Shown in pieces: positions 50,441 through 50,560 of a DNA stretch of 56,518 nt. Origin of the DNA: Verrucomicrobiota bacterium (GTDB lineage Bacteria > Verrucomicrobiota > Verrucomicrobiia > Limisphaerales > RI-55); contig JBDNGP010000160.1 of NCBI GenBank assembly GCA_041689265.1, positions 1 through 56,518 of the forward strand. Direction: 5' to 3'. The notes under the pieces were generated by a model. The model saw only the letters and a list, made by a program, of their open reading frames with translations, was not told the origin of the DNA and made no database searches. The position numbers were made by a program, and so were the translations under genes. Every line of letters begins with the position of its first letter. The stretch's first letter is position 1.

Positions 50441-50560
50441 AGAGTGAGTGAAGGGCCAAAGGGCCGCCGGCCCGTTGTATATTCAGCCCGGGGCGCCCAA
50501 AGGAAGCCCCGGGTATCGAGCCGAAGAAAACGCAAGGCCTGAAGGGCCCGAACGCCCGAC
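50441..50560. repeat. GC-rich hairpin cluster upstream of the giant AAA gene (CCCGGGGC-gcccaaaggaa-GCCCCGGG ; GGGCCGCCGGCCC ; GGGCCCGAACGCCC)
   Basis: Read directly from the sequence. Shares the ATTCAGCCC and CCYGGGGCG...GCCCCRGG motifs with the downstream element. Confidence 0.6.

Follow-up and report, generated by a model that had tools for sequence, protein, structure and literature searches.

The window analysed here is a 56,518-nt stretch of contig JBDNGP010000160.1 from a Verrucomicrobiota bacterium (assembly GCA_041689265.1), a single metagenome contig of 56.5 kb. It carries a giant gene for a 1784-aa AAA protein, with GC-rich hairpin elements on both sides. We conclude that the three hairpin elements around this gene are likely to be dispersed, non-autonomous repeats of the REP/REPIN type (REP, repetitive extragenic palindrome; REPIN, a REP doublet forming one long hairpin), tied to an IS200-like Y1 transposase. 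This kind of system is already known, and the window elements are a further member of it. The same repeat is dispersed, occurs in doublets, flanks Y1 genes and is unlinked to the giant gene in the element-bearing loci listed; the elements are therefore most likely ordinary selfish repeats and not dedicated switches. For the window, this removes the tempting view of the hairpins as a bespoke control system of the giant gene.

The repeat unit and its three window copies

For the covariance model R1, 134 units from other genomes were used and the window was left out. The search of the window with R1 gave exactly three full-length matches (Table 1), and the next best match reached only 10.8 bits. 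All three copies bracket the giant gene, one upstream and two downstream. The first-pass annotation had described related hairpin clusters on both sides of this gene, and the matches to a model made of foreign units confirmed that they are real and related. The whole window had no Rfam match at the gathering threshold.

The aligned flanks of the genome loci showed that the unit is approximately 100 nt long and contains three hairpins in the order H1, linker, H2, variable spacer, and H3. H1 is a small GC hairpin with the triloop AAC, GAA or AAA. The linker of 10–13 nt ends in YAG directly 5′ of H2. This YAG foot is near invariant (A in 131, G in 130 and Y in 121 of 134 units) and reads CAG in all three window copies. 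In the canonical subfamily, H2 has an 8-bp stem, CCTGGGGC-AWC-GCCCCAGG. A spacer of 20–25 nt separates it from H3, which is small and has the loop GAA. Of 138 units, 108 had H1 ending 10–13 nt ahead of H2, and 91 had H3 starting 20–25 nt past H2. The likeness between loci extends beyond the 19-nt search word, up to 43 nt.

The small hairpins H1 and H3 covary. Their positions were paired in 96.7% of cells, compared with 84.7% in shuffles. The covariation score was 0.318 versus 0.119 in shuffles (0 of 500 reached it), and slid controls gave at most 0.059. Compensatory two-sided changes were found in all 10 H1/H3 pairs; the stems swap G-C and C-G, and the loops stay. On the YAG-bearing strand of the 134 units, G-T pairs outnumbered A-C pairs (90 versus 22) and were mostly loop-closing pairs, which indicates that the YAG strand pairs better. 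This excess fits a one-strand substrate.

The downstream palindrome consists of two units placed tail to tail. The H2 sequence CCTGGGGCRWYGCCCCAGG occurs twice in the window (56031–56049 and 56154–56172) against 0.08 expected, and none of 100 shuffles reached two copies. A nested inverted repeat with arms of 19 and 14 nt had been reported here. The nesting is real and the arms are larger: the outer arms span 30 nt with 97% complementarity (56020–56049/56154–56183) and the inner arms span 21 nt with 86% (56071–56091/56112–56132). Folding of the doublet was far above shuffles both as RNA (−126.6 kcal/mol, z = −10.2) and as DNA (−77.4 kcal/mol, z = −9.85).

Three other identities were considered for the hairpins and rejected. 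An intrinsic terminator does not fit, since there is no T-run, the sequence past 56183 is GCGGGCCTTTGGCTCTCC, and the terminator scan gave no site for H2 or the long hairpin. The plant microRNA precursor MIR537 matched the long hairpin at 43 bits against a gathering score of 100, which is a generic long-hairpin artefact. The R″/R′ core of an integron attC site (RYYYAAC...GTTRRRY) is incompatible with GGGCAAC/GTTGCCC.

On the upstream side, the relatedness is visible in the architecture and not in the folding energy. The upstream intergenic region as a whole did not fold significantly above shuffles (z = −1.84 and −1.75). Its H2 stem differs from the downstream one by a compensatory change from T:A to C:G (CCCGGGGC/GCCCCGGG versus CCTGGGGC/GCCCCAGG), and its loop has 11 nt instead of 3 nt. 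Relatives keep this pairing by two-sided changes, with CCCAGGCC/GGCTTGGG in locus L125 and CTTGGGC/GCCCAAG in locus L247. Pairwise alignment with locus L122 showed an 8-nt insertion, relative to L122, before the upstream H1. One shared motif of the first-pass annotation did not hold. The word ATTCAGCCC, given as common to both sides, lies at non-homologous positions, namely the linker and H2 start upstream and the reverse strand of H3 downstream; its two occurrences in the window (0.36 expected) were equalled by 6 of 100 shuffles.

Dispersal and association with Y1 transposase genes

A reference-genome scan with the 19-nt H2 pattern listed at least 120 loci (826 kb). An independent metagenome scan with a window-derived 29-mer listed at least 119 loci (690 kb). 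The counts below refer to these 120 and 119 listed loci. The carriers among the genome loci include Verrucomicrobiota, Planctomycetota, Acidobacteriota, Lentisphaeria, Kuenenia, Parabeggiatoa, Anaerolineales and others, and several genomes were matched repeatedly. One metagenome (Ga0214473) contributed at least 12 contigs to the metagenome matches listed.

The profile search found 230 units in the genome loci, with 48 convergent, 4 divergent and 12 tandem adjacent pairs. A total of 272 units came from the metagenome loci, where adjacent pairs were convergent in 70 cases, divergent in 4 and tandem in 35. The window doublet is the standard form of the family, as in REPINs (PMC3116915, PMC3337134). 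All-against-all BLAST of the neighbours of the units returned ordinary genes (ClpB, RpoD, SDR, ABC transporters and kinases) and also spurious open reading frames (ORFs) that run across the repeats. A homolog of the giant protein was absent from all 239 element-bearing loci listed. The suggestion of a REP-like family in the first-pass annotation agrees with these results: the repeat is dispersed and multi-copy, lies mostly in inverted doublets, and flanks Y1 genes.

The ORF between units lying approximately 460–540 bp apart was a Y1 transposase (PF01797, E = 1.6e-25 to 3e-21 for four ORFs). These Y1 proteins scored 59–69 bits with the NCBIfam model NF033573 (IS200/IS605), against a cutoff of 55. 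A Y1 gene abutted units in 11 of the genome loci and 17 of the metagenome loci, mostly in the arrangement unit(+)-Y1-unit(−). In total, units directly flanked an IS200-like Y1 (HUH) gene in 28 of the 239 loci. The proteins are approximately 150 aa long with the motifs DHVH, WQ and Y---Q--HH and a conserved C-terminal tail of approximately 30 aa. As judged from these motifs, they carry the signature of TnpA-Y1 subclass 1.2. The RAYT motif pattern Y...NP.. had no match in the loci; the Y motif of the Y1 proteins is a different one. The Y1 genes had no tnpB gene beside them.

The Y1 association also bears on a classical miniature inverted-repeat transposable element (MITE) derived from a DDE-type transposon, whose terminal inverted repeats would be recognised as double-stranded DNA and flanked by a target-site duplication. 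The doublet has a suitable length (approximately 165–210 bp) and 30-nt near-perfect terminal inverted repeats. However, no direct duplication was present at 56020/56183 or 55997/56207 (...GGCGCA/ACCCATG... and ...CATGGGT/GCGGGC...), the arms are themselves hairpins, and solo and tandem units are common. Y1 HUH was the only recurrent mobile-element gene beside units, and no DDE transposase turned up. A MITE is extremely unlikely.

The system can be compared with several described ones. The REP/REPIN and RAYT pairs (TnpA-REP) of Escherichia and Pseudomonas, also called REPtron (PMC3116915, PMC3337134, PMC3479197), share with it a GC-rich hairpin with a 5′ foot (YAG here, GTAG there), inverted doublets forming long hairpins, dispersed, apparently intergenic copies, long vertical persistence at orthologous sites, and a single small Y1 HUH gene between inverted repeats, which is found in relatives, while the window has no Y1 gene. 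The near-invariant YAG foot resembles the GTAG tag of REPs (PMC3733652). Unlike REPtron, the unit here is a three-hairpin composite of approximately 100 nt and not a single 20–40-nt palindrome, and nearly the same core recurs in several phyla, in contrast to the largely species-specific classical REPs. The transposases share motifs, tail and length with subclass 1.2 (Quentin et al. 2018, PMC6006769), which was described as low-copy and mostly cyanobacterial or from Bacteroidetes. Unlike the published members, those found here (in Verrucomicrobiota, Acidobacteriota and Planctomycetota) have structured inverted units on both sides, and these units also occur as dispersed repeats. In one genome, class 3 TnpA-Y1 of Solibacter is accompanied by hundreds of hairpins (PMC6006769); its NHVH, W[TA] and YV..EQ motifs and CnGA foot do not fit the proteins and the foot here.

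IS200/IS605 elements also have a Y1 HUH transposase (NF033573 above cutoff), subterminal hairpins abutting both gene ends, and small non-autonomous copies. They differ in having two different end hairpins in the same orientation on one strand, whereas the ends here are inverted copies of one unit. By their description, the TIRtrons/TIRYT of Acidobacteria (Di Nocera et al. 2013, PMC3733652) are Y-transposase genes flanked by inverted repeats, some of them repeated families. The same source describes GTAG REPs of the Planctomycetes-Verrucomicrobia-Chlamydiae group as abundant in Opitutus terrae and Rhodopirellula baltica, with opposite-orientation dimers common.

We propose the following mechanism by analogy with IS608 and RAYT. 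The autonomous form would be two inverted units around the Y1 (HUH) gene of approximately 150 aa, which belongs to the IS200 superfamily and has the subclass 1.2 signature. The enzyme would recognise the hairpins and the 5′ foot on one single-stranded DNA strand, for example at a replication fork. Cutting and rejoining the strand at that site, a cut-and-paste chemistry on single-stranded DNA, would let it spread units and doublets in trans. Two convergent units would form the long hairpin of a REPIN-like doublet, as downstream of the giant gene.

The window unit is, on the present alignments, a relative of Rfam RF01687, the Acido-Lenti-1 RNA motif. RF01687 matched unit 1 over its full length at 56005–56049 on the minus strand (22.8 bits) and unit 2 at 56154–56199 on the plus strand (19.5 bits), both below the gathering score of 37. 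Units with an identical H2 in L003, L014, L027, L033, L053 and L056 passed at 37–46 bits. The two-hairpin architecture of RF01687 (8-bp stem, linker of approximately 10 nt, 5-bp stem) is present in the alignment to model positions 1–46, and the same arrangement occurs in the 134 aligned units. The 2010 description of Acido-Lenti-1 presented a candidate RNA of two hairpins, counted 89 representatives from Acidobacteria and Lentisphaerae, noted group II introns near some of them, and proposed no function (PMC2864571). The two share a core of an 8-bp hairpin, a linker of approximately 10 nt (CUnnnUAUG) and a 5-bp hairpin, and both are multi-copy without gene association, again with a group II intron nearby in L003. 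Unlike Acido-Lenti-1, the window-type unit is approximately twice as long, with a third hairpin approximately 22 nt away. Its units lie mostly in inverted doublets, and its range includes Verrucomicrobiota, Planctomycetota and other phyla. The strand modelled by Rfam is the opposite one (H2, linker, H1), and the family is labelled a small RNA (sRNA) there, whereas the units here are tied to Y1 genes, which the 2010 supplementary note on Acido-Lenti-1 does not mention (PMC2864571). The full-text literature search with the H2 sequence returned no paper.

The Rfam label corresponds to another explanation, in which the elements are a small trans-acting or structural RNA family that lies beside the giant gene by chance. 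The full-length RF01687 matches, the passing sibling copies and the strong covariation of the small hairpins speak for it, and the 2010 authors rated the motif a probable RNA with covariation (PMC2864571, Additional file 2). We consider it very unlikely. The symmetric inverted doublet predominates, so that there is no preferred transcript, and the strand that pairs better is opposite to that of Rfam. No promoter-like site was found in 50000–56518, and no T-run follows the hairpins. This explanation also leaves the tight inverted flanking of Y1 genes unexplained, and tandem arrays with periods of approximately 50–60 nt occur in L003 and other loci.

These arrays were seen in two forms. In L003, a Parabeggiatoa metagenome-assembled genome (357–701 and 6825–6901), seven copies of the central hairpin together with one small hairpin are arrayed in tandem with a period of 50 nt. 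Each array copy passes RF01687, and a group II intron domain is present at a distance of 6 kb, which echoes the intron remark of 2010. A CRISPR was rejected for this array, since it has no variable spacers. The metagenome loci L145, L186, L190 and L200 have same-orientation tandem arrays of approximately 62-nt repeats, beside some Y1 genes. The approximately 62-nt arrays suggest a second mode of amplification.

The REP/REPIN reading links three subjects that the sources consulted treat separately, namely Acido-Lenti-1 (function unassigned in Rfam), the REP/REPIN concept, and a Y1 subclass described without repeats. If it is true, the Rfam label and the modelled strand of Acido-Lenti-1 need revision. 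The near-identical REP core in at least five phyla would then be a useful case for the spread and persistence of repeat-enzyme pairs.

The units beside the giant gene

The start ATG of the giant gene is at 50597, and the stop codon is at 55949–55951. The source annotations name the protein "DNA repair ATPase" or "MoxR-like ATPase"; the name DNA repair ATPase appears to be annotation only. More than 5600 homologs were found at E ≤ 1e-50, and the named ones belong mostly to Verrucomicrobiota and Planctomycetota. Upstream, a 686-aa ORF stops at 50383 and leaves a 213-nt spacer, in which the upstream unit is located. Downstream, at least 560 nt run to the window end without a convincing gene. In the stretch past the doublet (56208–56518), no ORF was convincing, and nothing resembled the gene that comes next in L122. 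The order of a protein of approximately 210 aa, one of approximately 690 aa, and the giant protein is kept in relatives. In many of them a PspA-like protein (approximately 273 aa) and an AAA protein (approximately 600 aa) follow. The window copy of the approximately 210-aa protein matches Pfam YqiJ_N, and the approximately 690-aa protein has no Pfam match.

Ten loci with homologs of the giant gene were searched with R1, giving eleven related loci including the window (Table 1). Conservation beside homologs, which the first-pass annotation had proposed to check, was found for the upstream unit only: it is present in L122 and weak in L125, and L247 has a unit-Y1-unit arrangement in the same spacer. 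The downstream doublet is absent from all ten loci, including L122, where the downstream spacer is 211 nt long. Between the window and L122, identity was 73% in the unit core, 76% in the leader before the start codon and 48% in the 5′ part of the spacer, and the H2 and H3 stems of the upstream unit are intact in L122. This pattern is consistent with a stable hairpin that decays slowly or, alternatively, with some reuse. The units of L247 belong to the same big-loop subfamily with the same CATATTCAG linker, and their Y1 is of subclass 1.2. Two Y1 genes lie beside the giant gene among the relatives, upstream in L247 and downstream in L248.

In our reading, the upstream solo unit is an older, inherited copy of the big-loop subfamily and a probable remnant of the unit-Y1-unit element still found in the same spacer of L247, and the downstream doublet is a later, lineage-specific insertion of the canonical subfamily. 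We keep the reservation that the upstream copy may have a secondary local role, since at least two relatives have retained it at its orthologous place. Another arrangement, with the giant gene as cargo between inverted units, was rejected: its flanks are of different subfamilies, and the gene order is kept in relatives without units.

Table 1. Positions of the hairpin units, the giant gene and the units found at its homologs (percentages are identities of the giant protein)
Feature	Position	Strand	Details
Upstream solo unit, big-loop subfamily	50452..50559	+	R1 full model (positions 1–99), 42.7 bits, E = 3.5e-8
Upstream H1	50461..50473	+	GGGCC-GCC-GGCCC; sequence, hairpin scan, L122 alignment
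Upstream central hairpin H2′	50487..50513	+	CCCGGGGC, 11-nt loop, GCCCCGGG; perfect 8-bp inverted repeat; preceded by ATATTCAG
Upstream H3	50536..50548	+	GGCCT-GAA-GGGCC; R1 alignment; identical in L122
Giant gene	50597..55951	+	1784 aa; DUF3686, DUF7902 and AAA (Pfam); context, outside the element
Downstream unit 1, canonical subfamily	55997..56095	+	R1, 83.8 bits, E = 9e-18
Unit 1 H1	56005–56019	+	TGCGCC-AAC-GGCGCA
Unit 1 linker		+	ACCCATGCCAG
Unit 1 H2	56031–56049	+	CCTGGGGC-AAC-GCCCCAGG
Unit 1 H3	56072–56084	+	GGGCT-GAA-AGCCC
Long palindrome of the convergent doublet (REPIN-like hairpin)	56020..56183	.	Inverted-repeat arms, folding
Downstream unit 2, inverted	56108..56207	−	R1, 74.0 bits, E = 1.7e-15
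Unit 2 H3	56119–56131	−	
Unit 2 H2	56154–56172	−	
Unit 2 H1	56186–56198	−	One mismatch
Conserved gene string	47684–55951 (window)		Also L122–L127 and L247–L250; Pfam and homolog loci
L122, upstream solo unit	2851–2959		Giant protein 77%; orthologous, 46.6 bits, same big-loop H2
L125, upstream copy			Giant protein 66%; weak 16.9-bit copy in the corresponding position, with compensatory changes that preserve the H2 pairing
L247, upstream spacer, first unit	790–897	+	Giant protein 67%
L247, upstream spacer, Y1 gene	916–1368		Intact
L247, upstream spacer, second unit	1366–1474	−	
L248, downstream spacer	5351–5966		Giant protein 66%; more diverged unit, frameshifted Y1, inverted unit
L250			Giant protein 65%; 11-bit trace only
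L123, L124, L126, L127, L249			Giant protein 58–67%; no R1 match

The first-pass annotation had also offered gene-specific control, by a pair of regulator sites or by 5′ and 3′ RNA elements. In the most explicit form of this explanation, the units are a cis-regulatory RNA: a leader at the 5′ end and an element at the 3′ end would govern how strongly the giant ATPase mRNA is expressed or how stable it is. The bracketing of the giant gene by all three window copies, the orthologous upstream unit of L122 with its better conserved core and intact stems, and the compensatory changes in H2 of L125 argue for it; the three units are also on the sense strand or in a symmetric hairpin. The wider comparison does not bear it out. 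None of the 239 listed loci has a homolog of the giant protein, and the neighbours of the elements elsewhere are unrelated ordinary genes. Five of the ten homolog loci have no match and a sixth has only the 11-bit trace, and the doublet is missing from all of them. In L247 the spacer holds a transposase gene between two units, and the upstream region of the window folds no better than shuffles (z = −1.8). Gene-specific control is quite unlikely.

A function recruited by the host is compatible with a mobile origin. The downstream hairpin could stabilise the upstream mRNA or attenuate read-through into the PspA-like and AAA genes; protection of the 3′ end of the giant gene mRNA by the long hairpin would be one such side effect. 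The doublet begins 46 nt past the stop codon, its hairpin is very stable, and in relatives the operon runs on with the PspA-like and AAA genes right after the giant gene. REPs in Escherichia coli are credited with roles in mRNA turnover in the account of PMC3479197, and REPs in general with mRNA stabilization in that of PMC3733652. On the other side, the hairpin has no T-run, and the contig ends approximately 310 nt past the doublet, which places the downstream genes of this organism outside the sequence. Such recruitment is possible, if doubtful.

A combined explanation starts from the three subfamilies and the two Y1 genes that lie beside the giant gene among the eleven related loci. In it, the spacers of the giant gene are a preferred and selectively kept home for Y1/hairpin elements. 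The enlarged loop of the upstream unit (GnCCnnnGGAA) is conserved, and this unit would have been taken over as a leader of the ATPase mRNA, or the ATPase would act on the same single-stranded DNA hairpins. Acido-Lenti-1 would then be the missing REP partner of Y1 subclass 1.2. We regard this combination as unlikely.

Several points weigh against dispersed REP/REPIN-type repeats as the explanation of the window elements. The 56.5-kb window has only three copies and no Y1 homolog, and no other contig of the source sample was among the matches listed in either scan. Elements adjoin the giant gene in 5 of the 11 related loci (window, L122, L125, L247 and L248), in addition to the L250 trace. At least three subfamilies lie beside this gene, more than simple random insertion predicts; the simplest guess is that existing units serve as landing sites for new ones. 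The Y1 proteins are not canonical RAYTs: the model NF047646 gave 21.3 bits against a cutoff of 80 and matched only one of four proteins, and the Y motif is Y---Q--HH and not the YxxxNP of RAYTs. Subclass 1.2 was described without REPs or terminal secondary structures (PMC6006769), and the Rfam class of Acido-Lenti-1 is sRNA. H2 was the search key for the loci, so its covariation is not measurable in that set and the densities are biased. Covariation alone cannot separate an RNA hairpin from a single-stranded DNA hairpin.

Other features of the window

A 34-nt motif (GCTCAAGGTTCGTTCGGAGAACTCACCCCACCTT) occurs at three intergenic spots (14036–14069, 25341–25374 and 35225–35258) with 76–94% identity. 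It has a 23-nt near-invariant core, TCGTTCGGAGAACTC.C.CCACC, and is unrelated to the hairpin units. The motif could represent a leader, promoter or ribosome-binding region common to the three spots. One of its copies shares a long divergent spacer with a perfect 24-nt inverted repeat at 25142–25197, which has an 8-nt spacer (CTCCTCCTCGTGGTCGTCCTCGCC/GGCGAGGACGACCACGAGGAGGAG).

An ARAGORN call at 42073–42153 (tRNA-???, with a four-base anticodon) lies inside the minus-strand ORF 40677–42560 and is probably a false positive. The window ends in a near-perfect palindrome at 56485–56518 (TTCCCCAACCGCCCCCG/CGGGGGCGGTTCGGGAA), with an AT-rich stretch before it. This palindrome scored 19.6 bits with Rfam PhotoRC-I against a gathering score of 45 and had no R1 match. 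Possibly, the assembly broke here at another repeat.

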